A DNA stretch of 60,652 bases, taken from positions 1 through 60,652 of the IMG/VR virus record IMGVR_UViG_3300038679_000011. The stretch is one strand, 5' to 3'. A model generated the notes under the pieces. It was not told where the DNA came from, did not search any database, and was given only the letters and a program-made list of their open reading frames with translations. Both the position numbers and the translations under genes were made by a program. The DNA is from a virus (lineage: Duplodnaviria > Caudoviricetes). Shown here piece by piece: positions 23,522-51,030 of the stretch (the stretch's first letter is position 1; every line of letters begins with the position of its first letter).

Positions 23522-23959
23522 TCAGGCTTCGTCTTCGGTCTCTTCCTCGGATTTCTTGACCGAGGCCAGAAGGGCATTCACATCGACGCCTTCCTTCTCC
23601 AGCGTCTCGCGAAGCTCGGCCATGCGCTCTTGCAGCTTGATGAGCCGCTTGGCCTTGCCGCGTTCCTTGCCAGCGCCCATCTTCTTTGACTCTTCGGCCT
23701 TCTCGAGCAAAGTCTGGGCTTTGGCCTGGAGCTCTGCGGCCTTGTGCTCGAGGTGGAGGTACTCAGCCTCGAAGGCCGAGCGCTTCAGCGGCTTGAACTT
23801 ACCCCATTCCCAGCCACTGGGGACAGCGACCTTCAACTTACCGTCCTCGAGGCCCGGGAACTCTGGCTTCGACTTCTTCACACGAGCGGGCTTGTCGGCC
23901 TTGTCGGCCTTACCGGGCTTGCTGGTCTTGTCAGCAGTGGGCTTTGCAGGTTTTGCCAT
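23522..23959 (-). CDS. Lys-rich-tail coiled-coil protein, paralog A
   Basis: AAGGAG RBS, MAKPAKPTADK...; clearly similar to 26390..26869. Confidence 0.75.
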   Translation of the reverse strand: MAKPAKPTADKTSKPGKADKADKPARVKKSKPEFPGLEDGKLKVAVPSGWEWGKFKPLKRSAFEAEYLHLEHKAAELQAKAQTLLEKAEESKKMGAGKERGKAKRLIKLQERMAELRETLEKEGVDVNALLASVKKSEEETEDEA

Positions 23960-24158
23960 TACAGTGTCTCCTTTGCAGTGTCTGTGTTTGTGTCTTACGC
24001 TTCTGTTCATGTTCACTTATGTTGTTGCCTCCGTGCTATGTGTATCCGTGACGGTAACGGAGTTCAATGGCCTCCTTTCCTTACTAGATGCTTAAGTTTA
24101 CGACCACTGATTATAGTATCGGGCACGCTTAACGTCGCGTACCGCGTTCGTTGGTCGT

Positions 24159-24256
24159 CGACCTGTCTCATCGGTCACGGTAGGTCATTTCCGTGAGACG
24201 GCGCCGCGGCGGACAAGCAACCAGCTGCTGTTCTGGTTTTACGGCGCCGTTTCGAC
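24159..24256 (-). ncRNA. Type II hammerhead ribozyme (CCGAUGA core variant)
   Basis: GUC-GAAA-stem III ACGGCGCCG/CGGCGCCGU-C-stem I UCACGG/CCGUGA-CCGAUGA-GAC; loop I GACCU pairs with 3' AGGUC; predicted cut 24197|24196. Confidence 0.8.
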
Positions 24257-24649
24257 TCACTGTGAGTCTAATGCATTGAGCTCGTTCTGGAGAGCTTCGA
24301 TGCGCTCCATAAGCTTTTTGTATTTCCTGTCAGCACGTTCCTTCTTCGCGGTCTCACGAGCTTCTCTTGCGGCCTCGCGTTCGGCCTGTGTCGTGAGTCG
24401 GTTCGCGGCACGGTCGTAGTTTGCCGCGAGTCGCTCGAGCTTGTCAGCGAGCAGGTCGAGCTTTGGATCGAATTGCTCACTGAGCTCTTCGTGTTCGACG
24501 CCCATGGCATGGACTTGGTCTGCGATATCTCGGATGATGTTGCCAGTGTTTGTCGTGATCGTCGCGGTCTCGCGTGCGGCCTTCTTGGGGGCGCTCTTGC
24601 TGCTCTTGCTGCTCTTGGTGTTCTTGGTGTTCTTGGTGTTCTTCGCCAT
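24257..24649 (-). CDS. Lys-rich-tail coiled-coil early protein
   Basis: MAKNTKNTKNTKSSKSSKSAPKK; TAGGAGATA leader. Confidence 0.7.
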   Translation of the reverse strand: MAKNTKNTKNTKSSKSSKSAPKKAARETATITTNTGNIIRDIADQVHAMGVEHEELSEQFDPKLDLLADKLERLAANYDRAANRLTTQAEREAAREARETAKKERADRKYKKLMERIEALQNELNALDSQ

Positions 24650-24689: not shown

Positions 24690-25193
24690 TCACTCGCCAG
24701 CGGCTTCGACTTTTTCTAGCTTCGACTGGAGCTTCATGAGCTCCCTGATCTTCTTTGCGTCCTCAAGTGCCACATGCGAGTGGTTGGCTTCTCCAAATAC
24801 GTGCAACACACACTCGGGTCCGAAGCCCCACTCTACGCTCGCGGGCACTGTTAGCAATCGGCCGCAGCGACCGCAGCGATTTGAGTGCCGCACTCGCATT
24901 CTCGGGTCGAGGTCATTGTCGCTCTTGAGCACTGTGATGAGTCGTTTGAACCACCGAAAGCATGTAGCGCTCTCAGTGACTCGGGATCGGCCAGTAACTT
25001 GAAAGTCATCTTCAAAAAGCGTGCCGATGTACTCATAATTACAGACGTTGTCTGGTCCACTGAGCACCTTGACCCACCACATCGGCTTAGTGTCGTGCTT
25101 GCGGACGTGATACGTGAATCGTTCTCCGGTCAGCGAGTCCTCAAGCGTGAAGAGCGCATTGCCGGCGAGTACGAACTCTTTCCAGTGCCGCAT
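24690..25193 (-). CDS. DUF6011-like Zn-finger protein
   Basis: FVLAGNALFTL...TYHV...LSGPDN...CGRCGRLLTVPASVEWGFGPEC; GGAGG RBS before ATG 25193. Confidence 0.75.
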   Translation of the reverse strand: MRHWKEFVLAGNALFTLEDSLTGERFTYHVRKHDTKPMWWVKVLSGPDNVCNYEYIGTLFEDDFQVTGRSRVTESATCFRWFKRLITVLKSDNDLDPRMRVRHSNRCGRCGRLLTVPASVEWGFGPECVLHVFGEANHSHVALEDAKKIRELMKLQSKLEKVEAAGE

Positions 25194-25194
25194 C

Positions 25195-25542
25195 TCACGC
25201 CTCCGTTTGAAAGTGCTCAGCAAGTGCAGCACGGAAAGTCTTTTCAACGTCGGCTCGAAATTCGATAACGACTGAGTCTGCTTGGTCGTACCACACAGAT
25301 TTAACAGAGCCGCTGCTTCCGCTCGCTAGTTCAAGACAGTTCTCATTGTGGTTCCACCAGATGCACGAGTAGTCATCACTGAGGCGGTACGGCTCGCCCA
25401 TCATGAACGGGTCTAAATCAACAAATGTACTCGCCTGTTTGCGTGCAGTCTGCTGTGGCTGCGCCATATCTGACGTGCCCGTCAGGTACGCGTCGAGACG
25501 CATCAATGACTTTTTGAATGCGGCCTTTGCATCAGCTTTCAT
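25195..25542 (-). CDS. Hypothetical early protein
   Basis: TGTAGGAGACA leader before MKADAK (ATG 25542). Confidence 0.6.
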   Translation of the reverse strand: MKADAKAAFKKSLMRLDAYLTGTSDMAQPQQTARKQASTFVDLDPFMMGEPYRLSDDYSCIWWNHNENCLELASGSSGSVKSVWYDQADSVVIEFRADVEKTFRAALAEHFQTEA

Positions 25543-25566
25543 GTCTTGTCTCCTACAAAAGTCGTC

Positions 25567-25644
25567 GAGTCGTTTTGAGCGACAGTCGCTCGGCTCGGGC
25601 CGGTGCCCGCCCATTGTTGTTACACCGGCCTCCGCGAAATACTG
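25567..25644 (-). ncRNA. Unassigned structured RNA motif, copy B
   Basis: UCGCGGAG-hairpin-CCGAGCCG-AGC hairpin GCU-AAACGACUC, same pattern as 26895-26954. Confidence 0.5.
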
Positions 25645-25869
25645 TCAGTCATGAATGCAATCAAACAAGTCCGTGTCTTGCCAAAAGCGCTTGATCATGA
25701 TCTCTAATGCGAAACGCGTGCCTTGGTACTGAATGACGGGCCAACCTGCGGGTCCCATCGGATCGACAATCTTATACGTGATCTGCATGTCACGCATATA
25801 TCGTCGCAACTCAGGGTTGTGTTCCAGTTCAACGGTGTTCAGTTCGACTTGTTTAAATTCGACTGCCAT
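25645..25869 (-). CDS. Hypothetical early protein
   Basis: TGTAGGAGACA leader before MAVEFK; GPAGWP.I.Y.G motif. Confidence 0.65.
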   Translation of the reverse strand: MAVEFKQVELNTVELEHNPELRRYMRDMQITYKIVDPMGPAGWPVIQYQGTRFALEIMIKRFWQDTDLFDCIHD

Positions 25870-25941
25870 TGTTTTGTCTCCTACAAGGTGTTGAGTCGTT
25901 TGCCCACCCATTGTTGCTACACCGGCCTCCACGAAATACTG

Positions 25942-26211
25942 TTACTTAGGTTCGATCTCGCCCTCGAGCAAGCGTTCGACCTCGCGTTGAATACGTTCCC
26001 ATGGTGCATGCGACGATATTGACTGACTCGGCGTCGGGCCCTTTCGGAGGGCGCCGGCCTTGCCTGTGAAGTAAAGGTCGTCAAGCATAGCGGGCATCTT
26101 GTACGCTCGGTACTTCTTCGAGCGGCAAGACACCTCAGTTCCTCTGTGGCAACCCGTCAACCAGTGATGCAGCAGCTCTTGCTTCGTCATGCGTTCGACT
26201 TGCGTCTTCAT
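25942..26211 (-). CDS. Hypothetical early protein
   Basis: TGTAGGAGACA leader; YFTGKAGALRKG motif. Confidence 0.65.
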   Translation of the reverse strand: MKTQVERMTKQELLHHWLTGCHRGTEVSCRSKKYRAYKMPAMLDDLYFTGKAGALRKGPTPSQSISSHAPWERIQREVERLLEGEIEPK

Positions 26212-26242
26212 GGTCCTGTCTCCTACAAGGTGTTGAATCGTT

Positions 26243-26311
26243 TGACCTGTCTCATCAGCGGTGGGCGGTCACCCACACCGGACGACGTGTGACATCACAC
26301 GTCGTTTCGAC
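26243..26311 (-). ncRNA. Type II hammerhead ribozyme
   Basis: GUC-GAAA-stem III ACGACGUGUG/CACACGUCGU-C-stem I CGGU/ACCG + GGG/CCC-CUGAUGA-GAC; loop UGACC pairs with 3' GGUCA; predicted cut 26281|26280. Confidence 0.92.
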
Positions 26312-26389
26312 TTTAGGAGGCCCGCAGGCTGTGAACCTGCGGGCCCGGTTGGAGGCCCTGCGGCGGAGTGCCGTAGAGAGGCGTGCTGT

Positions 26390-26869
26390 TTACTCCTTGT
26401 CGTTCTTCGCGGTAGCGGCGAGCAGTGCGTCGACATCGATTCCGGCGCTCTTGAGCTCAGCTGTGAGCTCTACGATCTTGTTCCGCATTTTCTCGACCTT
26501 GCGGGCGGCGGAGAGTGTCTTCTTGTCACCGTACTTCGAAGCATCTGCAGCTCGGAGACGCATCTGTGTGGCCTTGTACTCGAAGGCTAGTGCCTTGTGC
26601 TCAAAGTAGAGCTTGTCGTGCGTGAAGTTCTTTTTGGCAAGCGGCTTGTGCGAGCCGAAGCCGAAGCCGTCGGGCATCGCGATGTCGAACGGGCCTGCCT
26701 CGACGTCGAACTTCGTCACCTTCGTCACCTTGGGCGTCTTGGCAGCTTTGACGTCGGTTTCCGGTGCAGTCGCCTTGGTCGCCGGGGTCGCCTTGGTCGC
26801 CGGGGTCGCCTTGGTCGCCGGGGTCGCCTTGGTGGCCTTGCCGCTCGTGGGGTTGACTTTCGTCGTCAT
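26390..26869 (-). CDS. Lys/Ala/Thr-rich-tail coiled-coil protein, paralog B
   Basis: ATKATP x3 (18-bp repeat); KPL...EHKA...GIDVDALLA shared with 23522..23959. Confidence 0.75.
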   Translation of the reverse strand: MTTKVNPTSGKATKATPATKATPATKATPATKATAPETDVKAAKTPKVTKVTKFDVEAGPFDIAMPDGFGFGSHKPLAKKNFTHDKLYFEHKALAFEYKATQMRLRAADASKYGDKKTLSAARKVEKMRNKIVELTAELKSAGIDVDALLAATAKNDKE

Positions 26870-26894
26870 GTTACTATCTCCTATAATATGAGTA

Positions 26895-26954
26895 GAGTCG
26901 TTTAGCAGCACCAACGGCTGCTCGGCTCAGCCCGCCGTAAAGCGGGCTCCGCGA
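26895..26954 (-). ncRNA. Unassigned structured RNA motif, copy A
   Basis: UCGCGGAG-CCCGC/GCGGG-CUGAGCCG-AGCAGC/GCUGCU-AAACGACUC. Confidence 0.5.
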
Positions 26955-27125
26955 GAAGTCGTTAATTATCGCACATTAGTATCAACAATACGTTCGGCGC
27001 TATTGTCATGGCACCACGGCATGCAGTGCAGTTCCATGAAACAACGAGCAGCGTCGCTTGTTACGAAGTACTCGGTACGTTTATTGGTCTTGACGAAAAC
27101 GGTTCGGTCTCTTGGGTAACTTTGA

Positions 27126-27320
27126 CTATTGGTACAGTTCGGTGTACGCGACGAACATGCGCTCGACTTGCTTCTGAAACAGACGTGCGTGGCCTTTGCA
27201 GGCAAATCCGAATTGCACAGAGCACTGTGTGGTCGATCCGAAGAACTCGCCTTTGCACTTGCGAGCAAGGGCGTCGATGGACATCAGCGGTGCGGCAGAT
27301 TGAACTTTTACTCGAGCCAT
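27126..27320 (-). CDS. Hypothetical early protein (possibly frameshifted, may extend to 26966)
   Basis: TGTAGGAGACA leader before ATG 27320; another frame stays open to 26966. Confidence 0.55.
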   Translation of the reverse strand: MARVKVQSAAPLMSIDALARKCKGEFFGSTTQCSVQFGFACKGHARLFQKQVERMFVAYTELYQ

Positions 27321-27351
27321 TGTCTTGTCTCCTACAAGGTGTGGTCGTTTC

Positions 27352-27414
27352 GGCCTGTCTCATCAGTGCCGGGCGGCCAGCCCGCGGCAGACGGCGCCAT
27401 AGCGCCGTTTCGAC
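27352..27414 (-). ncRNA. Type II hammerhead ribozyme
   Basis: GUC-GAAA-stem III ACGGCGC/GCGCCGU-C-stem I UGCC/GGCA + GGGC/GCCC-CUGAUGA-GAC; loop UGGCC pairs with 3' GGCCG; predicted cut 27390|27389. Confidence 0.92.
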
Positions 27415-27649
27415 TAATTGTGGCAGTAATGAGCATGCTCTTGTTTTCGCTGAAGCGCTTTGACGTGGCGAATGTGTTTGCAGTCATGTCGCGGCGTATG
27501 CATCGTCCAACCGGGGCAAGAGCATTGCCATTGATACTTGAGGAACCCTGTGATTACTTCACTGACCACGTACTTTTTCCGCTGTCGCTCGTCACCGAGT
27601 AGCGATTCAGTTGAGCAACGTTTTTGATTCGTGTTTGTCTTGTCGTCAT
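27414..27649 (-). pseudogene. SWIM Zn-finger gene split by a frame break at GGAAAAAG
   Basis: ATG 27649 frame stops at 27554; the -1 frame carries KYVV...WQCSCPGW...CKH. Confidence 0.6.
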
Positions 27650-27679
27650 TGTCTTGTCTCCTACAAGGTGTGGTCGTCG

Positions 27680-27768
27680 TGGCTTGTCTCGTCAGGCGGG
27701 CAGTAGCCAGCTGCGTCGCGAACCGGCAGAGCGTATTCGAGCGAATCTTGCTCATGCCGGGTTTCGAC
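27680..27768 (-). ncRNA. Type II hammerhead ribozyme (CUGACGA core, UUC site, one stem III mismatch)
   Basis: GUC-GAAA-C-CCGGCA/UGCCGG-UUC-stem I GCG/CGC + GCAG/CUGC-CUGACGA-GAC; loop UGGCU pairs with 3' AGCCA; predicted cut 27720|27719. Confidence 0.78.
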
Positions 27769-27770
27769 TC

Positions 27771-28150
27771 TTTGACTTGGGTGGACTGTCCAGTGCGCTG
27801 TAAGGTACGGTGCGTCATCGCCGTCGTAGCTGCCTCATGTTGCAGCATGGTAGCAGTTCAGCTCGTCGTATGCGATCGCATCTTGTCGAGCAAACGCGTT
27901 CCCGTGTTACGGTCGCCTCAGATCGTCCTGGCGTCGTTTCACCCGGCCATAGCCAGCGGTGTATCAGCCTCTTGCTGCTACCAGCCCATGATCCCCACCT
28001 TACTCCCTTCGGTCCGCGGCATCGTCGTATTCGAGCGAATCTTGACGACCCAGGGTCCGAAGCTTTCGGCAGGGGACAAGCGGTAAGTCAGGTCCCGTGC
28101 GGGATTCAAGCCGTTACGTCGGTCCGCAGCAGGCTGCGTTCGGCTTCGTG
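27771..28150 (-). ncRNA. Candidate large structured non-coding RNA (unassigned)
   Basis: No RBS-led ORF; nested helices UGACUU/AAGUCA, GUCCCC/GGGGAU, CUUCGG/CCGAAG, UGGUAGCAG/CUGCUACCA and pseudoknot GUAAGGU/ACCUUAC. Confidence 0.6.
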
Positions 28151-28183
28151 TTATTCAATTTTCAATTCAATCCATTGAGTATC

Positions 28184-28212
28184 ATTTTAACCAATTGGTT
28201 CATCATGGTACA
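28184..28212 (-). promoter_or_regulatory. Putative sigma70-like early promoter
   Basis: TGTACC-17 bp-TAAAAT with AT-rich upstream sequence; same architecture as 43280-43308. Confidence 0.55.
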
Positions 28213-28262
28213 CAGGAAAATTGGAAAAACGTCACAAATTACTAAAATTTTCTCTTGTGACG

Positions 28263-28345
28263 TAAGTCGTGTTATACCCTGGACTTATACCTCAAAGCCT
28301 GGGTCAATCGGGTCGTCTCTAAGTCGTGCTATACCCTGGACTTAT
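28263..28345. promoter_or_regulatory. Two 26-bp direct repeats, each a TAAGTC-N13-GACTTA dyad
   Basis: TAAGTCGTGYTATACCCTGGACTTAT at 28263 and 28320. Confidence 0.7.
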
Positions 28346-28520
28346 GAATGCCACCTGAGGCCACCAGAGGCTCTAGGACGGCCTATCGGCCTATTCAATC
28401 GAATCGTATTGACCAGGGGTCGACATCGACCTGGGCAGCCTCAGGTGGCATCCTATACATCGTCACGACGACACGCCGGTCGCATGGTACGCCGAACTAC
28501 TCTGGCTTGTACCCGCCGAA

Positions 28521-29765
28521 CTACTCTGGCTTGTACCCGCCGAACGCGTCGAACCACGTGTCGCTTCGTGGGTCATCGTAATGAACGAGCCGGTCAAGCA
28601 TCGCATCGACGAGTTCGAAGTTGGGGCGAGTGACACTTTTCCAGTACGCGAGCTCGTCGCTATACCGTATCGGGTCCTCAAGTTCGTTGACTCGCCGCTT
28701 GAAGTCGCCCGGTCGAGCTACTCTCCAGTCAGATTCGAGCGATAAGTACTGCTCAAGTGCATCGTAGGTCAGCGTGTGCTCGCCGTCGCCGAAGAGTAGC
28801 GGTACGCAGTTCTGCGACGTAAGGAAGTGAATCTTATTTGTCACGAACCGCGGGCCTGGCGCTACGCATGGGCAACACACACTTGCAGCCATCGCCGCAG
28901 CGCACTCGCTGAGCAACACGCACCCAGCGAACATCGGCCGAAGTGCATCGTATCGATGGTAATGTTCCCAGTCGCGGCCATAGATTTTGACGTCGCGGTT
29001 CATGAGTTCGACTGCGTCTTCCGTCGGCGATAGGATCGTGTCGAATGCACTCACGCGGTTATCACGTCCGTGGAACTTCGAATGCATGTAGCAGTGCGCT
29101 ATGATGCACGCAGGAACGTCTTTTATTACGTCTTTTACTTTTGGAGTCCACGTCCAACTCTCAGTCTGGCTCAGCACAGAGCGACGCAAGAACTGCTTGC
29201 CGCCTACAGTAACTCGCTTGTCGCATGCAGTCTGGTCGAGTAACGCAAGCGGACGCGTCCACTCAAATCCCCATGACATCTCTTGGTTGCGAGGGTAGCT
29301 GCGGATGTCGTTGTTGATGAGGAACCGCGGGATCTTGTAGCGCTCGAGCACGTGTAGCATCGGAGCGACGTAGCGCACTGACATCGCTGCGGGTCGTGAT
29401 CCTTCGGGGTTGTTGATGAAGCCAGTGCTCGTGGGCATGCCGGTAAACTCCAGCATGCACAGCGGGTTCCAAAACGGCAGCGCCTCGAGAGCGGCCTCGT
29501 CCCGGGCGAACCCACGCTCTTGCATCCGCTGCGTCGTGAACTCATCGAAGCCCTTGACGTACGGCTCGATGACGTGAACGCCGTCAAGACTTGGTCCGTC
29601 CCATCGTCCGAAGTAGACGACGTCCCATCGGTCAGTTTCGACGAGATGCCTGAGCAAGCCTTCGATTTCGCCCATTGTATGCATCGCAGACGACGGATGG
29701 TCCATCTCGCGAATGCGCATCGTCACGCCCGCTTTTGTTACTATGATGGTGTGTCGAGCTGTCAT
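28521..29765 (-). CDS. GT-B-fold glycosyltransferase-like protein, probable DNA glycosyltransferase
   Basis: 414 aa; LINNDIR, KIYGRDW and FVTNKIHF...CVPLL resemble the GT-B sugar-nucleotide lobe; last gene of the pol/TS operon. Confidence 0.5.
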   Translation of the reverse strand: MTARHTIIVTKAGVTMRIREMDHPSSAMHTMGEIEGLLRHLVETDRWDVVYFGRWDGPSLDGVHVIEPYVKGFDEFTTQRMQERGFARDEAALEALPFWNPLCMLEFTGMPTSTGFINNPEGSRPAAMSVRYVAPMLHVLERYKIPRFLINNDIRSYPRNQEMSWGFEWTRPLALLDQTACDKRVTVGGKQFLRRSVLSQTESWTWTPKVKDVIKDVPACIIAHCYMHSKFHGRDNRVSAFDTILSPTEDAVELMNRDVKIYGRDWEHYHRYDALRPMFAGCVLLSECAAAMAASVCCPCVAPGPRFVTNKIHFLTSQNCVPLLFGDGEHTLTYDALEQYLSLESDWRVARPGDFKRRVNELEDPIRYSDELAYWKSVTRPNFELVDAMLDRLVHYDDPRSDTWFDAFGGYKPE

Positions 29766-30673
29766 GATATCTCCTCTGCGTTCTTGGGTTTCTCGATGCG
29801 TCTCACAACGTGTGGAAACGCGTGCTTATAGTAGCAGTCTTTGCACTGACCGACCTTGCGACCGTGCTGCAAGTGCCAGCGATACGCCTGCATCGTCTCG
29901 CTGTTCCACGCGGCGAGCACGTCGCGGTAGTCGCCTACGACTGTAGGACTCGGTGACACCGGGGTCGTCACGCAGCACAGCACGATCTGACCGGTCCACC
30001 AGACCACGAGGCGCCTGTGCGGCTGGGCGCAGTACCGCTGCTTCTTCGGCAAGATCATGCCGTTTTCTTTGAGCGCACGCTCTATCTCCGGTATTAGGTA
30101 CGTGTGGCACACGGCGTGGCGGCTGATCTCAGGGTCGGTGACATCGACGAGCGTGAACAGCTTAGAGCGATGAGATGGTGCTCGCCACTCCACTTTGCCG
30201 TATGACGTCTCAACGTCTTCGTCACAGTTGCTCATGATGTTGAGTACCCTCTCGTACACATCCGTGTCGTACGCGTCCACGTTCAGCACGTTCAACCCGG
30301 CGTCGAACAGCGCACTCACTTGGTCCGTCTGCTTGAGCAAGTCGCCGTTCGACGTGATGAGTATCTTTGATCGTGGGCACGCCGCTCGGAATTGCCGGAT
30401 CTTGTCGGGCATCGTCTTGTCCAGCAAGGGCTCTCCTAAGTAGAACAGCTGCGCAGTGCCGTCGAATTCGAGCTCACCGAACTGCTCAATGAGCTTGTTA
30501 AAGACGTCCTGCGACATACGGCCCTCTTGGTCACGTGTTCTCATCCGTGACGGACAGAACACACACCGGCGGGTACACTTGCCGACTGTCTCGATTGACA
30601 CTCGGTTGAATAGCGGGTACGGCTCGCTGCACTTGAGCGGCGGCAGTGACTTCATCGACATCCAACTACTCAT
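29762..30673 (-). CDS. Radical SAM/SPASM-Twitch protein
   Basis: CTRRCVFC, GEPLLD, TSNGD, C-terminal CAQP..LCC..CKDC; ATGA overlap with pol stop. Confidence 0.9.
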   Translation of the reverse strand: MSSWMSMKSLPPLKCSEPYPLFNRVSIETVGKCTRRCVFCPSRMRTRDQEGRMSQDVFNKLIEQFGELEFDGTAQLFYLGEPLLDKTMPDKIRQFRAACPRSKILITSNGDLLKQTDQVSALFDAGLNVLNVDAYDTDVYERVLNIMSNCDEDVETSYGKVEWRAPSHRSKLFTLVDVTDPEISRHAVCHTYLIPEIERALKENGMILPKKQRYCAQPHRRLVVWWTGQIVLCCVTTPVSPSPTVVGDYRDVLAAWNSETMQAYRWHLQHGRKVGQCKDCYYKHAFPHVVRRIEKPKNAEEIS

Positions 30674-32601
30674 GTAGCCTCCTTGAATTTTACGTCGCCA
30701 GCATCTGATGACGCTTCTTTCCAGTTTTTTGATGAACGCCCACATGAGGTCCGAATTGGCACACGAAACTTAATAGCTGTGTCCTCGTACAGTTCCGCGA
30801 TTTTCTTGAGCACGGTCAAGTCCTGGCTGATCTCTTTTGGCACGTTGTTCAACGACTCATCATGAACGTAGGCACACGGCAAGATGCCGAGGTCCCGTAT
30901 CCACTTGTTGTAACGAGGTGCTGTAGCCACGGCACGCTCTTTCATGACGTCCGCGGCGCTTGACTGGATGACGGTATTGAACGCTCGGAATGCGGCTTTC
31001 ACAGGCAGCCGCCGCTGTCGGCCATAAGCATTAAAGACATACCCACGCACTTTTAAGTTGTTTGATGCCCGACGCATCGTACCCTTGAGCGTAGGTAGCG
31101 CTGCGAGATACTGATTATAGACTTGTTCACCTCTTGATCGGCAGAGTAATGCAAATGTTTGTTGGCGCTGACTTTCTTCGATCTTGCCTTGAACCACAAA
31201 CTCTTCTACTCGTTTTGACATCGCACCAACGAGTTCCATATTTGCAGATAGCATTGACACAATCTTGTCTTTCCCACCGCCAAACGCAATAGCAAAGTTG
31301 ACGTTCTTCGCTGGCTTTCGTGGGATGCCGCACATCTCAGCGACCCACGTATGAAAATCTGTATCGGGGTTGTCGTTATATGCTTGAATCGCATCAAGTG
31401 CTTGAATGTAGTGAACGATGAGTCGAAATTCAATCTGTGAGTAGTCGTATCTTACAAAGTCGTAACCCTTGAGTGGGTACACGAGTTCTTTGGCTTCAGG
31501 CGACAACTGCTGAGCGTTTGGTCGACGACACGACATGCGGCCTGTGCGAACTGTTTGGTTATAGTCAGGGTGCATAATGCCGTTGACTTCGTGCTCCTGA
31601 TATGGCCGAACAAAGAACGTCAGCAACGTGTTGATGTGACGATACCGTTGGATTTTTGTCACGATTGTCGTTAGTTCGTGAGAGCACTGCACGTCCGGAT
31701 GGGCCTGATACGAGATCAGAGTGTCCTTGTCGAATGACGGGTCACCGGTGTCAGTCCACCCGAGCACGGGCAAACCGTACTTGTTGCACAGCACTTCAAA
31801 GCAGTCTGGGTTCATGTGCGGTCGCATCGCTATCCCAGTGACCTCGTGCAGCTGCTCCTCAAGTCGCAACATCTCGTCGAGAATGATGACTTCCTTTTTG
31901 ATGAGCTCGGTGCGATCGACACGCATGCCAGTGACTTCCATGTCAAACAGCACAGGCGTTAGAGCAACCTCAGTGTCCCACACTTGCACCGTCTGCGAAT
32001 CCCGGCGACGCAGTATGTGCTGATAGAGCTTGCGGTTCGTTATGACGTCTTGACCGCCGTATTCACCGATGACGTCACCCGGCACGTCACCATAGTCCTT
32101 ACTCTTGCATCCACTTAAGTACGCCTGAACGCGCTCATCATATCGAGAAATGTCATCTTCAAGCCAGTCACGAGACAGCGAGTCAAGATCGTACTTGAGG
32201 CGGTCAGAGTCGATGAGCTTAGCGAGTACGACCGTATCAACGAGCTCGGTGTTACCGAAGTCAATCCCATCATAGCGGGCAAAGTGCGCATCAAATTTGA
32301 TGTTGTGGTTGATCCAACGCTTTGCAGATGTGACAGTGCATTTGAGCCACTGCATTACGTTGTCTACTGGCAAGTTCCACTTGTCCCGTGCACACCTGAC
32401 CGGAATGTACCATGCTCCAGGCATATCATCAGCTGTGATGCACACACCAGCGATCTTGTGGCCATGATGCGGCTTAAATGCAGATTCCTTGCAGTTGTAC
32501 GATCGTGTTTCAAAATCAACATACAAGTTCTCTGCATTCATTAAGTTAGGCAGTTCATTGAGCTCTTGCACAAGGCGAACACCGTTAGAGAACGAAAGCA
32601 T
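30670..32601 (-). CDS. Family A DNA polymerase with 3'-5' exonuclease
   Basis: DFET, NHNIKFD, TGRMS, DYSQIEFR, RKPAKNVNF and YVHDE motifs. Confidence 0.95.
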   Translation of the reverse strand: MLSFSNGVRLVQELNELPNLMNAENLYVDFETRSYNCKESAFKPHHGHKIAGVCITADDMPGAWYIPVRCARDKWNLPVDNVMQWLKCTVTSAKRWINHNIKFDAHFARYDGIDFGNTELVDTVVLAKLIDSDRLKYDLDSLSRDWLEDDISRYDERVQAYLSGCKSKDYGDVPGDVIGEYGGQDVITNRKLYQHILRRRDSQTVQVWDTEVALTPVLFDMEVTGMRVDRTELIKKEVIILDEMLRLEEQLHEVTGIAMRPHMNPDCFEVLCNKYGLPVLGWTDTGDPSFDKDTLISYQAHPDVQCSHELTTIVTKIQRYRHINTLLTFFVRPYQEHEVNGIMHPDYNQTVRTGRMSCRRPNAQQLSPEAKELVYPLKGYDFVRYDYSQIEFRLIVHYIQALDAIQAYNDNPDTDFHTWVAEMCGIPRKPAKNVNFAIAFGGGKDKIVSMLSANMELVGAMSKRVEEFVVQGKIEESQRQQTFALLCRSRGEQVYNQYLAALPTLKGTMRRASNNLKVRGYVFNAYGRQRRLPVKAAFRAFNTVIQSSAADVMKERAVATAPRYNKWIRDLGILPCAYVHDESLNNVPKEISQDLTVLKKIAELYEDTAIKFRVPIRTSCGRSSKNWKEASSDAGDVKFKEAT

Positions 32602-43332: not shown

Positions 43333-43869
43333 TTATTTCCGAAAAGCGAGCAGCACAGTCGGATCAGTCAACTCGGTCTTGTAAAAGCGTTTCTCAGCGA
43401 GTTGCTCTGCACCTGAGAAGAGCTCGCACAGTCGCTCAGCGCTTGCGTGTGAGCGGTGGTGCAGTCTCTCCATTTTCGCCTCGCTGTGGTGAACGACCGG
43501 AGTAGTAATGACGATGACGCCGCCCGGTTTTGTGACGCGGACGAGCTCGTCCGCGAAATACGCGTGGTACTCATAGTCGAGGTGCTCGATGACGTCGCTC
43601 GCTATGACAACGTCGGCGAAGTCCTCAGAGAACGGCATGCAAATTGCAGTCGACTGCTTGACTACTGCGCCGTACGTGATTCTACACTTTTCGCACGCCG
43701 CCACATCAATATCTACTCCGAACAGCGTCCACGGCAACACGCGTCGTCGTACTTCTTTCATCGTTCGACCTGACCCACACCCAACATCAAGCAGTACACG
43801 CGGCTGCGTGCGTCCCATATGTTGCTCAAGCGTATCAACAATTTCAACGTACCTGTTAGCCTTTTGCAT
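43333..43869 (-). CDS. Class I SAM-dependent methyltransferase
   Basis: LLDVGCGSG, GVDID, DVIEHL and RVTKPGG motifs. Confidence 0.9.
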   Translation of the reverse strand: MQKANRYVEIVDTLEQHMGRTQPRVLLDVGCGSGRTMKEVRRRVLPWTLFGVDIDVAACEKCRITYGAVVKQSTAICMPFSEDFADVVIASDVIEHLDYEYHAYFADELVRVTKPGGVIVITTPVVHHSEAKMERLHHRSHASAERLCELFSGAEQLAEKRFYKTELTDPTVLLAFRK

Positions 43870-43873
43870 TAGC

Positions 43874-44842
43874 TCACCTTTTGAATGTGTACGGCGTTGG
43901 GCCAGTCAGGGGCGTACTTGTTATGTCCCACTCTTGTATTTGTTTCTTGATGTCGACGCTTACTCGCTGGCTCCACGTATTAAGCAGCCGCATCGTAGTG
44001 TCGCCTGGGTAGCCGCTGCCGATGCGCATGCCATCAAGCGTCACGACGGGCAGCATGCAAAACGGGGTGCCTGTCATGAAGGCCTCGTCTGCCTCGACGA
44101 CGTCGTATGGTTCAATATTTCGCTCTTCGCAGCGTAGGCCGATGCTGTTCGCGAGCGCGAGCACGTATGCCCGGCTGATGCCGCGTAAGCAGTTCCGGGG
44201 TTCTGGCGTGATGACGCGTCCACCTCTGACGATGAAAAAGTTGTCGCCGGTGCCCTCGGCTACGTAGCCGTCGTCGTCAAGTAATAGCGGCCACACATTG
44301 CGGCCTTTGAACAAACTTGCTTGAATGTTTGCCATCATCAAATGCATACGACTTCTGGTCTTTGCTTTAGGCTCAAGCAAACGGGCTGGTATTGCTCGTT
44401 GACTTGGGACCACAGCATCAATGCCTTCATCAAACAGTTTACCCATACCACGAACAGTCCATCGCAATGGGAAGTCAGCGATAATAACATTCGGTCCTGG
44501 TCTGATACCCGCTATACTTTCATAAATTCCAAGCGTACCACGAGTGACATTAATCATTATGCGGTGTTCGTCATCCTCAGCAAGAGCGCTAGAATTTTCA
44601 CTAATTGTAGCGTTGACTGCATCGATCATCTTGGTTTCAGACAGCGGCACGTCGATGTGCAGCCACTTGGCGGACGCGTACAGGCGGCGCACGTGCTCAG
44701 CCAGCATGAACTGCCGCTGGTTGAACGACCGCGTCATCTCAAAGACAGTATCCCCGAACATCATCGCAGAGTCGTAGATCGACACCTTCGCTTCAGACTC
44801 AGGCACGAACTTTCCGTTATAGTATACCACACGACTTGTCAC
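43874..44842 (-). CDS. Class IV PLP aminotransferase (IlvE/D-amino acid aminotransferase-like)
   Basis: FGDTVFE, EHVRRL, EGTGDNFF, LRGISR and EAFMTGT motifs. Confidence 0.92.
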   Translation of the reverse strand: MTSRVVYYNGKFVPESEAKVSIYDSAMMFGDTVFEMTRSFNQRQFMLAEHVRRLYASAKWLHIDVPLSETKMIDAVNATISENSSALAEDDEHRIMINVTRGTLGIYESIAGIRPGPNVIIADFPLRWTVRGMGKLFDEGIDAVVPSQRAIPARLLEPKAKTRSRMHLMMANIQASLFKGRNVWPLLLDDDGYVAEGTGDNFFIVRGGRVITPEPRNCLRGISRAYVLALANSIGLRCEERNIEPYDVVEADEAFMTGTPFCMLPVVTLDGMRIGSGYPGDTTMRLLNTWSQRVSVDIKKQIQEWDITSTPLTGPTPYTFKR

Positions 44843-45576
44843 AGGAGGTCTCCTTTAAGATATGCCATGAGCAACACCTCGCATAAAGCACAATCATCGG
44901 GCTCGTCGATCTCAGGCAGTTGCCACGACTTCATCTCATAAGTACCTAACTTGCCTGCAAATCGCTGTGCAGTACCCGACACATTAAGAAACGTAGCGTT
45001 TTGTTTAAGGACCCATGGCTTAAACAAGTACAACGACCCGTTTTCAATTACTCGAGTTGGAAAACGTTGCCGCTTGCGATTTAACATTAAGCATTCAGGT
45101 ACTACTGGATTAAGCACACCGTCTTCAACTGGCTGCCACAAGCAGAGGTCTTTCGCATGCACAACGGACATCATCGAGTCGTAGTTCCCCTCGATGAAAC
45201 GAACTACCGCGTTCGTCACGTCACTCGGTTTTCGCAGCGGCGACGTGATCTGTGGACATACAACGACATCTGGTACTTTAGATACAGTATTTATGTATGC
45301 TTCAAGAGCGTACGCCCATGCATCATCAATTCGCGAGTTGTCACCAGCTAACGCGTCTGGCTCAAGTACTGTCATACACGTAGCTCGACGACTAACGTAC
45401 TTAAGTACGTCCATACTATTTGATACGACTACAATTGTGTTGATGTACGGCGATGCGGCCAAAGCACACAAAGTCCAGTCAATCAGTGGCCGGCCACACA
45501 ACGTAATGGCCCATTTATTGGGCACGCCTTTTGAGCCCTTACGAACTGCTACTATTGCAATCGTATTTGTACTCAT
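44839..45576 (-). CDS. neuA: Acylneuraminate (CMP-nonulosonate) cytidylyltransferase
   Basis: RKGSKGVPNK, QITSPLR, ENGSLY and EIDEPDD motifs. Confidence 0.88.
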   Translation of the reverse strand: MSTNTIAIVAVRKGSKGVPNKWAITLCGRPLIDWTLCALAASPYINTIVVVSNSMDVLKYVSRRATCMTVLEPDALAGDNSRIDDAWAYALEAYINTVSKVPDVVVCPQITSPLRKPSDVTNAVVRFIEGNYDSMMSVVHAKDLCLWQPVEDGVLNPVVPECLMLNRKRQRFPTRVIENGSLYLFKPWVLKQNATFLNVSGTAQRFAGKLGTYEMKSWQLPEIDEPDDCALCEVLLMAYLKGDLL

Positions 45577-46403
45577 GCGTGATACCGTTCCCTAAGTTTA
45601 AGTGAGGCTATGATCTCGTTGCGGTCGCATCGTATAGCGCCGTCGCCCATTGCTTGTTCGATTTTTCGTACTGACCCAACAAGTACTCGCATCATGCCTG
45701 GTTCAATCGACGTTGTTTGGTCTGAACCATACATCGTACGTTCAAGCGTAAAGTGTCTCTCGAGCGACGTGATGCCTAGAGCAGTTGCAGCGCACGAAAT
45801 AGCAATGCCAGTCTCGTGTCCGCTGTATCCAACGTCACACCGGTATCGCTCACGCAGCGACACAATGCGACGGAGATTTGCCTTCTCATCAGGCAATGGG
45901 TACATGCTAACGCAGTGCATCAGTTCAAACGGACATTTTGCTATACGAAAAACTTGTGTAGCTTCGTCGGTAATTCGCTCATCGCTCATGCCAGTTGAGA
46001 TAAACGTATATCGGCCTTCTGACGCGACAACTTTCAAGAACTCAAGGTCAACTAGCATTGGAGCAGCGACCTTGTTGTACTTGAGATTAAAATGCCTCAG
46101 GAACTCTTGACTCTCAACATCCCACGCAGATGCGAACCACTCGATGCCAACAGACTTGCAGTAAATGTCGATTGCAGAATACTCAGCAAGTCCAAACTCA
46201 AGGCCACGTTTCTGGTCGTATTGCGTGTGGCCCCACGGTGACTCTCTTGGTGTGTCAAGAAAAGCCTTTGAGTACACTTTTTCGATCGTCCGCTTTTGGA
46301 ATTTTACTGCATCACATCCGCAGTCTTTAGCAGCATCGATCATGCGTTTTGCAATAGCAACTTCGCCGTTGTGATTAATGCCAATTTCAGCTATGATAAA
46401 CAC
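45573..46403 (-). CDS. neuB: N-acetylneuraminate-synthase-family (nonulosonate synthase) protein
   Basis: IIAEIGINHNG, DAVKFQKR, ISTGM, HCVS.YP, GYSGHE and ERHFTL; AAGGAGG RBS before GTG 46403. Confidence 0.92.
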   Translation of the reverse strand: MFIIAEIGINHNGEVAIAKRMIDAAKDCGCDAVKFQKRTIEKVYSKAFLDTPRESPWGHTQYDQKRGLEFGLAEYSAIDIYCKSVGIEWFASAWDVESQEFLRHFNLKYNKVAAPMLVDLEFLKVVASEGRYTFISTGMSDERITDEATQVFRIAKCPFELMHCVSMYPLPDEKANLRRIVSLRERYRCDVGYSGHETGIAISCAATALGITSLERHFTLERTMYGSDQTTSIEPGMMRVLVGSVRKIEQAMGDGAIRCDRNEIIASLKLRERYHA

Positions 46404-46413
46404 TTTAGCCTCC

Positions 46414-47211
46414 TTATTTTGGTGTTGGAAGACCCCAGTACTCACATGTTGAACACAGTGGCACAACGTTTCGACGGCCTCGCTTGTGGGCCTCTATCCA
46501 AGCGCGACGACGAGTACAATTCCAAATGTCAGACAGCGATTGATGATTCGCATTTCCAATAACGCCTTTGTGGTACGGATCAAGCCGTACACAAATCGAT
46601 ACTTCGCCAGTGCGACATATTGACATACGATGCATCAAGTCAAGGCACACTCCAGTCTCAGGCACTGTTACTCGCTTTGACTGATAGTCAAAGCTGCCCA
46701 TCGGCGAGTGCAGTGCCCGTGTCGCGACTGGTATACCAAGATTCTTATACCGCAGCGAGTTGACTACGCCGTTAAGACGCACGACAACTAGTGGTTTACG
46801 GTCGCCCTTCTCCTTAAGAAAAAGTTTAAGCAAGTCGTACTGCTCATCTGCCTCGGGATCGTTTTCTATTACAGACACCGCTATCGAATCAACGATTTCA
46901 ATGATTTCAGCAGACTTAGCAAGTAACAACTTACCGTTAGTATCGAAGGTCGTAAAGCAATGGTTGAACATCAAAGCAGCTTCTTTGAAATATGGATGTA
47001 ACAGCGGCTCGCCGTTGTTATGTAGTTGCACTGTCACACCAGTTGGAATTTGTGAAGCGATGCGTTCGATGAGCTCAAAGTCCATGTCGCCCCACACTGC
47101 TAGTTCTGGATTTTCTGTTTCAATTTTACGACGTCCACAACACCAGCAGTTTTTGTTACACCGACTAGTTAATTCAACGTTTATGCTCGCTAATCCGTAA
47201 AGTCCACTCAT
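46414..47211 (-). CDS. Radical SAM/SPASM-Twitch protein
   Basis: CNKNCWCC, GEPLLHP, DTNG, C-terminal Cys cluster. Confidence 0.9.
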   Translation of the reverse strand: MSGLYGLASINVELTSRCNKNCWCCGRRKIETENPELAVWGDMDFELIERIASQIPTGVTVQLHNNGEPLLHPYFKEAALMFNHCFTTFDTNGKLLLAKSAEIIEIVDSIAVSVIENDPEADEQYDLLKLFLKEKGDRKPLVVVRLNGVVNSLRYKNLGIPVATRALHSPMGSFDYQSKRVTVPETGVCLDLMHRMSICRTGEVSICVRLDPYHKGVIGNANHQSLSDIWNCTRRRAWIEAHKRGRRNVVPLCSTCEYWGLPTPK

Positions 47212-47227
47212 TGCGTCGCCCTTTAGA

Positions 47228-47905
47228 TCATGTTTCTAATCGCGTATACAACTGCCACGTATGCACATTTACTTTCTTTCGCACGTCTTCAAAATCGTGG
47301 CCACACACAAGTTTTAGGCCAGTGTCTTCTACGCGTTTGACGAACGCATTTCGCAAACGGTTAGGACCTATTCCAACGTAACCACTGTGGTGGACATGCA
47401 AGCATACTTGTAGTGTAGTTACTCGTTGTAAGAAACTTAAATCAGAATTATACACAAGTGCACTGTACTCAGCGCCTTCTGCATTAACTCTAAGCAAGTC
47501 GATCTGGTCTAGTTTGTACTCATTGAAAAGCGTAGGAAACGACACACACTTTACGTCAAAGCAATTAGCATCAGTGTCAATTTCGTTTGCATCAGTTGTA
47601 GCACTTTGTGACACTACACTAGCATCAGCATACATCTTACACTGGCCATTAAATATATTGATTGCTCGTGCATCAATGGTAACGCGGCAATCATCACCCA
47701 GCAACTCAAATAACTTAATATGATTAGCAGGATGCGGTTCACACTCGTATAGACGCGTTCTTAATGGGTACATCAACGACATAATGTACTCGCCCCAGCT
47801 GCCATCGTACCCGCCAATATGAACAATGCAAAGTTCTTTTCGCTTCAACTCGTAATGCGTTCTCACTAAAAGAACTGCAGCTTCTTTGTCGTACGTGTTT
47901 TTCAC
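47228..47905 (-). CDS. FkbM-family methyltransferase
   Basis: HIGGYDG, CEP.P and IDLLRVNAEGAE motifs. Confidence 0.8.
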   Translation of the reverse strand: MKNTYDKEAAVLLVRTHYELKRKELCIVHIGGYDGSWGEYIMSLMYPLRTRLYECEPHPANHIKLFELLGDDCRVTIDARAINIFNGQCKMYADASVVSQSATTDANEIDTDANCFDVKCVSFPTLFNEYKLDQIDLLRVNAEGAEYSALVYNSDLSFLQRVTTLQVCLHVHHSGYVGIGPNRLRNAFVKRVEDTGLKLVCGHDFEDVRKKVNVHTWQLYTRLET

Positions 47906-48675
47906 GGTACTCCCTCTAGCCGCGATAAATTAACATGCGGAATTTTTGGGTAGAGCGTCGTGTCTGTAGACCCGACAAACATCAACTTTCCTTGAGCTCG
48001 CATCCAGCGCTCACTAAAGTCAACGATGAAATTCTGTATTTTGTATGTCGCGTACTTCGCATCAGGACTTTTGCCTTCGTGTGCCTTGTTTGTTAAATGG
48101 TGCACCGTGCCGTACTTTTGACTGCCGTCAGACCAAAAATAGTAGCTGTGATAAAAGTCCATTCCGTATAGTACAATGACATTGTAGCCCATTCGCCAGC
48201 CTAACTCAAGCAACATTGTTACACTAGCATCATACGACTTTGTAAGTACAAACGATTTTGAAGGCTTGTAGTTTGCATCAATCGGGCCTTTACGCTGTGT
48301 ATCACGAGCCTTAATTTCAACGTCGTATATTTCTGCACTGGGCGGAACAAGAGCGTCAACTCGATGAAACGAGTTATCAGAGAATTTGACAGTCTTGTTT
48401 TTAAGAAACATGAACTTGCACTTGCAGTACTCTCGCCACTTTTCAGCCAAACGCCGTTGCACAATTTTATAGTCATAGTGCTTAACTTCAATAAAGTAGA
48501 AAGTTGGAACAAAGAATGGATGGTATACCCAATTATTGATAGCTAATGTATCGCATTTTTTGAGCAGTGCCCACTCGTTTTCGCTTATAGCATTAATAGA
48601 ACGAGCACTTCCAAGCATCACAAGAACGTTGGAACGGCGACACTTCACAATGTCTTGCAGCGGGCGTCTTGACAT
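47902..48675 (-). CDS. CstII/GT42- or Maf-like nonulosonate transferase candidate
   Basis: MLGSARSIN...AINNW...MGYNVIVLYGMDFY parallels the CstII G.G.S...N.F...GY..I.L.G.DFY pattern. Confidence 0.55.
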   Translation of the reverse strand: MSRRPLQDIVKCRRSNVLVMLGSARSINAISENEWALLKKCDTLAINNWVYHPFFVPTFYFIEVKHYDYKIVQRRLAEKWREYCKCKFMFLKNKTVKFSDNSFHRVDALVPPSAEIYDVEIKARDTQRKGPIDANYKPSKSFVLTKSYDASVTMLLELGWRMGYNVIVLYGMDFYHSYYFWSDGSQKYGTVHHLTNKAHEGKSPDAKYATYKIQNFIVDFSERWMRAQGKLMFVGSTDTTLYPKIPHVNLSRLEGVP

Positions 48676-49451
48676 TATGACCTCTTTTCAAGTACCGGCG
48701 TATTCGACGAATTGATGCCTTCACGATACCGTTGTTCAACTACATTGATGATGTACTGTTTAACAACAGCGGCCCGTGATTTCTTGTATGCAGATTGACA
48801 CATGCGTCCAAGATGCACTCGATAAATAGCAACATCAAAATCAATGTACTCTGGCAATACTCCAAATCGAATTGCACGACGCCACATCTCGTTGTCACTC
48901 GAAAACCGTAAACTTTCATCGTACAGTCCAAGGCGCTCATGAAACTCGCGTTTAACCATGACTGTTTGTGCGTGCACTAACCGATGGTGATACGTTTTTG
49001 TAAGATCGACACCTTGTGCTTCTAATTCGTGACGTCTCTGTTCATTTATTTTACGATACCGCGTATTTGGTTTGTCACTACAACTTTCATCGATACATAA
49101 CGCTTCGCCGTGCACCCACAATTTGTTGCTGTTACGAAGCACGTTAAATCGAACAGCAAGTGAGTCATCTGTGAGCATGTCGTCTGCGTCAATCATTGCG
49201 ATGAAATTAGCTTTTGCGGCACAAATGCCCACGTTCTTGGCGTAGCTGTAGCCATGATTTGTAGTGAGGCGTATGAAGTCAAGCTGACTTATTCGTGTGT
49301 TGCAAACAGCAGACTGCGGATCGTCTTTACTTGCGTCATCGACTACGACCCACTGGACCTTGAGGCTTTGTCGTTCAATCGATTTAGCAAGCTCTGGCAA
49401 ATACCTAGCATAATTGAATGCTGTAGTTACTACTGTTACGTCTGGTTGCAT
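48675..49451 (-). CDS. GT2 glycosyltransferase
   Basis: VVTTAFN, VVDDASKD, IDADD and DNEMW motifs. Confidence 0.92.
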   Translation of the reverse strand: MQPDVTVVTTAFNYARYLPELAKSIERQSLKVQWVVVDDASKDDPQSAVCNTRISQLDFIRLTTNHGYSYAKNVGICAAKANFIAMIDADDMLTDDSLAVRFNVLRNSNKLWVHGEALCIDESCSDKPNTRYRKINEQRRHELEAQGVDLTKTYHHRLVHAQTVMVKREFHERLGLYDESLRFSSDNEMWRRAIRFGVLPEYIDFDVAIYRVHLGRMCQSAYKKSRAAVVKQYIINVVEQRYREGINSSNTPVLEKRS

Positions 49452-50413: not shown

Positions 50414-50420
50414 AGTTGCC

Positions 50421-51020: not shown

Positions 51021-51030
51021 AAAAGATTCC

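Follow-up and report, generated by a model that had tools for sequence, protein, structure and literature searches.

What is the 383-nt stretch of apparently gene-free DNA at the head of a cluster of small, hammerhead-flanked genes in a groundwater phage? The stretch occupies positions 27768-28150, minus strand, of IMG/VR record IMGVR_UViG_3300038679_000011, a complete record of an uncultured phage, 60,652 bp long and flanked by direct terminal repeats, that derives from groundwater metagenomes; we refer to this whole record as the window. A preliminary description, made from the sequence alone, had read 27771-28150 as a large pseudoknotted RNA that would be the first product of an early promoter and would be released by a neighbouring hammerhead ribozyme. 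We conclude that 27768-28150 is probably a real, orphan phage non-coding RNA. The explanation we favour, with a probability of about 0.45, is that this RNA is the structured leader of a hammerhead-cut accessory gene cluster, that it is separated as a species of about 0.4 kb, and that three copies of a small hairpin module make it a platform or sponge for one factor.

The stretch is non-coding by every measure we applied. Its three minus-strand frames contain 3, 5 and 4 stops, and their codon-usage log-odds are -0.22, -0.07 and -0.06; eight neighbouring small genes, each scored in its own frame, range from -0.01 (a split SWIM-like gene described below) to +0.28. The only minus-strand open reading frames (ORFs) listed in the region are a 43-amino-acid frame that starts with TTG and a spurious 5' extension of the next gene. 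These measures agree with the preliminary description, which had found no ORF led by a ribosome-binding site. It had also failed to match the region to known RNA classes and had proposed a search with Rfam covariance models. Rfam 15 returned only two Hammerhead_II matches in the whole window at the gathering score, both outside the region. A search of 25000-29000 gave no minus-strand match inside it, and 27660-28200 (541 nt), searched with lax filters, gave no match at E <= 10. ARAGORN found no transfer RNA (tRNA) or transfer-messenger RNA gene in the window. No known family was recovered, in line with the preliminary description.

The stretch is also present in an RNA library. Five groundwater runs contain it, one of which is a metatranscriptome (X4), and we mapped X2-X5 on 26000-29000. 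One X4 contig of 383 nt (record 18) maps over its entire length (1-383) on 27768-28150 with no differences and no loose end. Contigs from two DNA runs cross both borders of this interval (27735-28396 in X2; 27527-27811 and 27997-28216 in X3). The only other X4 contig on 26000-29000 covers 26357-26533, and the uncovered parts are no evidence of silence. The depths of the two X4 contigs, 13 and 2.8, were set aside because contig depth is no evidence of expression level. The preliminary description had predicted a discrete RNA with its 3' end at 27720. The contig fits the first half of that prediction, with ends 0 and 3 nt from the borders originally drawn, and does not bear out the second: it stops at 27768, at the 5' edge of the hammerhead, with the caveat that contig ends are not RNA ends. 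The last 48 nt may be under-covered, the 5' product may be trimmed to a structured core, or another nuclease may cut the A-rich linker. We take the 383-nt contig as a good hint, rather than proof, of a separate RNA species.

We asked which part of the sequence might carry a function. All ten complementary word pairs of the preliminary description are present where it had placed them, and the exceptional, densely paired pseudoknotted fold that it assembled from them did not hold up: both stability and stem density lie at the level of dinucleotide shuffles. The minimum free energy (MFE) of the minus strand corresponds to a z score of -1.41 for 27771-28150, -1.40 for 27768-28150 and -1.50 for 27720-28150, and in each case 8 of 100 shuffles were as stable. 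There are two perfect stems of at least 7 bp, compared with a mean of 2.77 in 60 shuffles, and a 9-bp stem occurs in 12% of those shuffles. Ensemble pairing probabilities are high for three of the ten helices (CUUCGG/CCGAAG, 0.99; GCUCG/CGAGC, 0.89; GUCCCC/GGGGAU, 0.68). They are low for the 9-bp helix (0.03), UCAUG/CAUGA (0.00) and CUGGC/GCCAG (0.00), and the crossing 7-bp pair received 0.02 from a model that is unable to score crossing pairs. Forcing the proposed nested helices gave -105.5 kcal/mol against an MFE of -135.2, about 30 kcal/mol worse. Because the stability is no better than that of shuffles, an outcome that the preliminary description had itself named as refuting its proposal, the global fold is unsupported.

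The two-domain MFE structure of 27768-28150, which leaves 5 unpaired nucleotides at each end, contains two hairpin arms. One is a long irregular arm at 28006-28062 that includes the CUUCGG/CCGAAG helix. The other spans 27861-27891 (z -1.87) and includes GCUCG/CGAGC. Each arm is capped by an exact copy of a 19-nt module, which consists of CAAGAU, four base pairs with a GNNC loop, and AUACG. The window holds three copies of this module, all exact and all on the minus strand: c2 (28026-28044) at the tip of the longer arm, c3 (27867-27885) at the tip of the shorter one, and c1 (27732-27750) at the tip of stem III of the adjacent hammerhead. Copy c3 contains a perfect 12-nt palindrome, AUGCGAUCGCAU. 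In the predicted fold a C-G pair closes the module and encloses an asymmetric internal loop (AAG against AC), a 4-bp helix and a GNNC tetraloop. The pattern CAAGATNCGNTCGNATACG has three exact matches, and at up to 3 mismatches it has 4 matches where 0.62 are expected; the two-copy pattern gave 2 matches with 0.00 expected. The module copies differ from one another in ways that preserve pairing. Within the inner helix, the third pair is G-C in one window copy and U-A in the other two, and the outer stems differ in sequence with their pairing kept (GAGC/GCUC in c1, GUC/GAC in c2).

The same module occurs elsewhere. A scan of IMG/VR for single modules, with N at the variable places, found 8 loci, and a looser form found 33. 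Three of the 33 (L012, L014 and L015) lie in spacers of phage tRNA arrays; the other 30 were taken as chance matches by eye only. In all three arrays a Watson-Crick pair is kept at the free position, and L015 carries two further, diverged copies in neighbouring spacers. We aligned the three window copies with the five array copies. In this alignment 77.5% of cells pair, compared with 23-34% when the partners are slid, and the covariation score of 0.321 (compared with 0.126) was reached by none of 500 shuffles. Pair 11-18 is GC in three copies, UA in three and AU in one. A covariance model built from the alignment and run over 994,424 bases of phage DNA, including 80 hammerhead loci, recovered only its eight training copies at 24.8-38.7 bits; the next match scored 18.8 bits. 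In the arrays the CAAGAU...AUACG sense lies on the tRNA strand, which corresponds to the gene strand in the window, and c1 has this sense within the hammerhead. Since the modules are both conserved and repeated, they are probably functional. They join two settings not linked before: hammerhead-processed operons and the tRNA-mimic spacers of phage tRNA arrays.

Further candidates were tried and rejected. The two-copy module pattern matched no IMG/VR locus, and its 14 loci in GTDB genomes were either repeats, tandem or coding, or duplicated stretches next to runs of N, none with a CG..CG core. The word CGGGAAC, found beside c3 and in L012 and L014, was treated as a coincidence because its structural positions are not equivalent. 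Within the region we dropped an internal duplication beyond the module (masked score 16, shuffle mean 17.1 from an unmasked comparison), a processing stem between the two flanks (-34.8, shuffle mean -48.3), antisense targets in the phage's own transcripts (best match 12 nt, E 1.1), and descent from the hammerhead or leader cassettes, with which the region has the module alone in common. One marginal 29-nt match between the region and a downstream hammerhead (HH2, below) was reached by 16 of 200 shuffles.

The module-bearing array spacers (L014 9581-9678; L012 1671-1768; L015 156-262, 334-480 and 554-702; all minus strand) have tRNA-like folds. They are predicted to form a cloverleaf opened at the anticodon side, in the order stem, T-like arm with a UUCAAUC loop, closed acceptor-like arm carrying the module, D-like arm, and stem. 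The tRNA-mimic domain of YrlA Y RNAs has this layout (Chen et al. 2014, PMC4201824). The spacers gave no match to the Rfam YrlA model at E <= 1 and none by ARAGORN. In the L015 phage a TROVE/Ro60 gene lies on the opposite strand, about 10 kb from the spacers; in the 194-kb record of this phage (G008) the TROVE/Ro60 match lies in a 565-amino-acid frame at 94019-95032 (plus strand). A sub-threshold YrlA match of 29.4 bits at 93805-93869 (plus strand) stands just upstream of this gene on the same strand, and judged by sequence the two probably make up a phage pair of Ro protein and Y RNA. The array spacers and the window RNA have the module in common and do not form a family.

The preliminary description had placed a hammerhead directly downstream of the stretch, and 27769-27680 indeed has every core element. 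We identified this type II hammerhead, HH4 (27680-27769, minus strand), by aligning it by eye with hammerheads scored by Rfam. It comprises AGUCGAAAC, a 38-nt stem III, a UUC cleavage triplet, a 24-nt stem I (27719-27696), CUGACGA at 27695-27689 and a 3-bp stem II (GAC:GUC). The conserved CUGACGA, GAAA and UUC are present, and the closing pairs A15.1:U16.1, G1.1:C2.1 and G10.1:C11.1 are intact. The cut is predicted after C27720, the same position as in the preliminary description. Loop I (UGGCU, 27709-27705) can pair with the tail (AGCCA, 27684-27680) in a pseudoknot; Perreault 2011 (PMC3088659) describes this pairing as the tertiary contact of type II hammerheads. The stem III hairpin, 27720-27769, has a z score of -3.07, and 1 of 200 shuffles was as good. 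HH4 thus has the core and the pseudoknot of a type II hammerhead, and its sequence predicts self-cleavage.

Three more type II hammerheads follow on the minus strand: HH1 at 27349-27415 (57.2 bits), HH2 at 26241-26312 (46 bits) and HH3 at 24157-24257. CCGAUGA replaces CUGAUGA in HH3, whose stem III measures 49 nt and whose 26.1 bits fall below the 37-bit cut-off of Hammerhead_II (RF02276). The loop I-tail pairs covary over the four hammerheads (GGCC:GGCC, UGACC:GGUCA, GACCU:AGGUC and UGGCU:AGCCA), with a length of five bases, or four in HH1. Rfam models overlook hammerheads whose stem III carries a large insert: of these four, two scored below threshold or not at all. A conserved leader and ribosome-binding site (RBS) block of the ACACCUUGUAGGAGACAAGACAAUG type lies at 27647-27685 (minus strand; families D2 and D3, 4 copies), with the ATG of the next gene at 27649. 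An RBS block of family D2 stands 25-45 nt downstream of each of the four hammerheads. A search with the RBS-block word gave one match, a chance one.

Hammerheads with the exact AGUCGAAAC...CUGAUGAGACA flanks occur in at least 120 IMG/VR viral contigs, with up to 7 per locus (L082) among the matches listed (L064-L143). Judged by these sequence matches, this ribozyme lineage is widespread in phages. The window locus stands apart in its first unit. In 19 other loci with at least two hammerheads, an ORF of at least 50 amino acids ends no more than 112 nt from the first hammerhead; by the same coarse ORF measure the gap in the window is about 750 nt. Neither a non-coding unit of about 0.4 kb before the first hammerhead nor a module in stem III was present in the 80 hammerhead loci examined.

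Upstream of the region lies a repeat-rich, partly AT-rich spacer of about 370 nt that separates it from a 414-amino-acid gene. On its downstream side is an AT-rich stretch, 28151-28228 (minus strand), which we presume to hold the promoter and which includes 28184-28212. This stretch is bounded by a terminator-like hairpin at 28225-28263 (minus strand), read from the sequence: ACGUCACAA and UUGUGACGU form 9 bp around a 17-nt loop and are followed by a U run. The terminator scan allows loops of 3-8 nt only, and this hairpin is outside its reach. A candidate shared promoter word, GATACTNNAAT, was tested and dropped. At 28263-28286 and 28320-28343 the spacer further contains two copies of AAGTCCAGGGTATA, A or G, then CACGACTTA, where 0.01 are expected; each copy is a dyad. 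The halves of a perfect 14-bp inverted repeat lie 76 nt apart at 28348-28361 and 28438-28451, and a 24-bp tandem duplication at 28490-28537 repeats the last codons and the stop of the 414-amino-acid gene. The spacer of symmetric elements at 28229-28537 could be a regulatory region or an origin.

These elements suggest a pathway. A promoter in 28151-28228, just past the terminator-like hairpin, would drive a transcript that starts with the 0.4-kb leader. The leader would thus head the small accessory-gene cluster, whose transcript would be cut by the type II hammerheads. It would be parted from the first messenger RNA at or near HH4 (27769-27680) and would persist as a free species of about 0.4 kb. 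Its working parts would be the three modules, two capping long arms and one capping HH4 stem III, rather than a global pseudoknot, and the RNA would serve as a platform or sponge with several sites for a single RNA-binding factor of phage or host. We infer that the minus strand is the one transcribed because of the orientation of genes and ribozymes, the strand on which the module reads in tRNA arrays, and the G:U pairs in the arms. We regard the whole block of radical SAM gene, RNA region and hammerhead cluster as accessory because the closest complete relative that we found (G001; DNA polymerase 49% identical) lacks all three. In G001 only 1.4 kb separate the polymerase from the homologue of the window gene at 23522-24016.

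Several observations weigh against this explanation. A sigma-70 scan of the minus strand found no promoter-like site in 28151-28228. The early promoter once proposed at 28184-28212 has no minus-strand sigma-70 site, and the locus follows the replication module and is away from the genome ends. HH4 has a C:U mismatch at 15.2:16.2, the second pair of stem III, and gave no Rfam RF02276 match, the latter likely because of the 38-nt insert in stem III. The RNA data come from one small run as assembled contigs only, from which strand, true ends and level are not readable. Release by HH4 is something we infer, since 48 nt lie between the end of the contig at 27768 and the predicted cut at 27720. The module statistics are partly circular: six of the eight copies were picked by a pattern that fixes 15-16 positions, and the free tests are the N positions and the flanks. 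Stability is ordinary (z -1.4 to -1.5), and the plus strand reaches even -2.14, a value matched by 2 of 100 shuffles. The analysis yielded no candidate binding protein, and no homologue of the whole RNA was found in the GenBank phages, IMG/VR or the GTDB genomes searched.

Some of the same observations would suit a plainer account, in which the stretch is only a GC-rich 5' untranslated leader, its hairpins are generic stabilisers or nuclease sites (of the kind of repetitive extragenic palindromes or RNase III-like sites), and the RNA has no role of its own; the detached leader fragment would survive because it is base-paired. The chance-level fold and stem density fit this account, as do the failure to find an antisense target in the phage's own transcripts or an internal duplication beyond the module, the absence of the whole accessory block from the closest complete relative, and the fact that hammerheads cutting phage operons are already described (PMC3088659). 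A generic stabiliser, however, needs no 19-nt module with 16 fixed bases and a compensated pair, and the recurrence of that module on tRNA-mimic elements of unrelated phages would be unexpected. The ORF-to-hammerhead gap, measured coarsely as above, also sets this locus apart from the 19 others. We therefore consider a mere leader somewhat unlikely. At the other extreme, the locus could encode a new phage effector RNA, released by a ribozyme as a stable species of about 0.4 kb whose three recognition hairpins act as a multivalent decoy for one host factor. The module, which also sits on Y-RNA-like tRNA mimics in jumbo-phage arrays, would then be a portable handle to recruit or sequester that factor, with a Ro/PNPase-type nuclease or a tRNA-directed defence enzyme as candidates. 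This bolder proposal seems improbable to us.

The two remaining accounts differ in strand or in molecule. The contigs have no strand information, and an antisense RNA could run along the plus strand over the leader and end at a terminator-like hairpin at 28131-28146, followed by UUAUUCAAUUUU. The scan does report a terminator-like site there on the plus strand, the RNA contig ends 4 nt past it, and the plus-strand fold is the one slightly better than shuffles. Upstream of 27768, however, the plus strand is GC-rich and has no promoter-like site. The minus strand carries every gene and all four hammerheads, the module in the tRNA arrays reads in the minus-strand sense, and G:U pairs in the arms (G28049:U28021; GUCCCC/GGGGAU) would turn into A:C mismatches. 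The plus-strand alternative accordingly has a small chance of being right. It is very unlikely that the repeats act in the DNA, as three 19-bp sites with palindromic cores bound by a protein at a replication origin or regulatory region. The core is a 5+2+5 palindrome, and the 370 bp upstream, with their two 24-nt repeats, 14-bp inverted repeat, 24-bp tandem duplication and iteron-like, AT-rich tract, would suit such a region. The stems that flank the cores nevertheless compensate (c1 versus c2), a need unique to an RNA hairpin, and one copy is part of a ribozyme stem. Array spacers are an unlikely place for an operator, spacings of 135 and 159 bp are unlike those of iterons, and the stretch is present in an RNA library. 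We thus return to the processed leader with three recognition modules as the best single explanation.

The genome gives this leader its setting. All long ORFs of the window are on the minus strand. In minus-strand order, tail and baseplate genes come first and are followed by a sugar-biosynthesis block (NeuB, cytidylyltransferase, aminotransferase and glycosyltransferases). Helicase, primase and nucleotide-metabolism genes and a family A DNA polymerase come next, then a radical SAM/SPASM protein and the 414-amino-acid protein, which belongs to no known family and whose predicted structure has a mean pLDDT (predicted local distance difference test) of 43. The spacer and the RNA region follow, and beyond them lie small genes of unassigned function with hammerheads in between and, further on, terminase, portal and head genes. 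The locus therefore sits between the replication module and an accessory/late block, with no obvious "early" position.

The first gene past the RNA, at 27414-27649 (minus strand), is split into two frames. Part 1 is a 31-amino-acid frame from the ATG at 27649 to 27554, and part 2 continues in the -1 frame to 27414 and has a CxC...CxH (SWIM-like) signature by eye. The break lies at GGAAAAAG, at the A-run 27574-27578, and the joined parts read ...SDSGK-KYVVSEV.... Either the assembly is wrong at this A5 run or the run is a -1 slip site, and the gene has no match in Pfam or PHROGs. A 174-amino-acid protein has a 9-nt periodic repeat of (K)ATPAT units at 26715-26846 (minus strand; family D1); the low complexity of this segment draws unrelated contigs in all DNA runs, with loose ends and high summed depth. 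Elsewhere (43333-51113, 29762-30745 and 46414-47211, minus strand) the phage encodes a sugar pathway of the nonulosonic-acid type (NeuB, cytidylyltransferase and class IV aminotransferase) together with several glycosyl- and methyltransferases and two radical SAM/SPASM proteins. A dCMP deaminase, a C5 DNA methylase and an enzyme resembling thymidylate synthase are encoded as well. The sequences of these sugar-pathway and nucleotide- or DNA-modifying genes suggest modified DNA or glycosylated virions.

Relatives of the locus were sought through the DNA and the neighbouring proteins. GenBank phages gave no match to 27300-28600 by blastn or to the 414-amino-acid protein by tblastn. IMG/VR gave none to that protein or to the DUF6011 protein. 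The DNA polymerase found 8 IMG/VR loci, the best at 49% identity; there was no hammerhead in the five searched and no module in any, the sole word match (L017) lying in coding sequence. The protein relatives found were P0002 at 77%, from a 2,354-bp contig, and P0003 at 44%, from one of 25.8 kb. Our literature searches, which were narrow and are no proof of absence, returned no description of the RNA.

We compared the RNA to known systems. Few phage-encoded non-coding RNAs with roles of their own have been described, and most large ones have no known function. GOLLD and ROOL are large phage or prophage RNAs of unassigned function and often lie close to tRNA genes. The window RNA does not reach their size, has no Rfam match to either and lacks a homologue family. 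Protein-sponge or antitoxin RNAs such as CsrB/RsmZ and ToxI carry several copies of a short recognition element on one RNA, as does the window RNA. Its copies, however, are 135 and 159 nt apart rather than in tandem, and they lack a GGA-loop pattern. ToxI, the antitoxin of a type III toxin-antitoxin system, repeats a unit of about 36 nt in tandem ahead of a gene for a ToxN-like endoribonuclease. Neither such a gene nor another defence gene lies next to the window RNA: PADLOC toxin-antitoxin models had no match among 10 neighbouring proteins, in which the sole PADLOC match at E <= 0.01 was a weak pVip assignment of the radical SAM protein (E 0.0067, 13.9 bits). Lambda-type late leaders (6S RNA, HK022 put) stand at the head of an operon just after the promoter. 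The window RNA likewise heads its operon after a presumed promoter, but unlike these leaders it has no minus-strand intrinsic terminator at its 3' end: the terminator scan found no terminator-like site on that strand near 27700-27800.

The window RNA has two words of the form GNCGAAN(0-1)G, recognised by eye at 28144-28137 and 28070-28063, as YrlA does (PMC4201824). Unlike YrlA it has neither T- nor D-arm, YrlA (RF02553) has no match in the window at E <= 1, and no TROVE (Ro60) gene was matched in this genome. Close counterparts are the hammerhead-cut phage and prophage operons of PMC3088659, which describes hammerhead clusters that flank single genes in prophages. As in those operons, small genes that would share one transcript are each flanked by type II hammerheads that have the pseudoknot. 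Unlike in the operons described there, a non-coding unit of about 0.4 kb stands before the first hammerhead of the window in place of a gene, and stem III of this hammerhead carries a repeated module. The window RNA is a defined unit bordered by a ribozyme, there is a hint that it is expressed in nature, and its small repeated module is directly testable. We conclude that what is new relative to known hammerhead-cut phage operons is a long non-coding unit ahead of the first ribozyme and a portable hairpin module.

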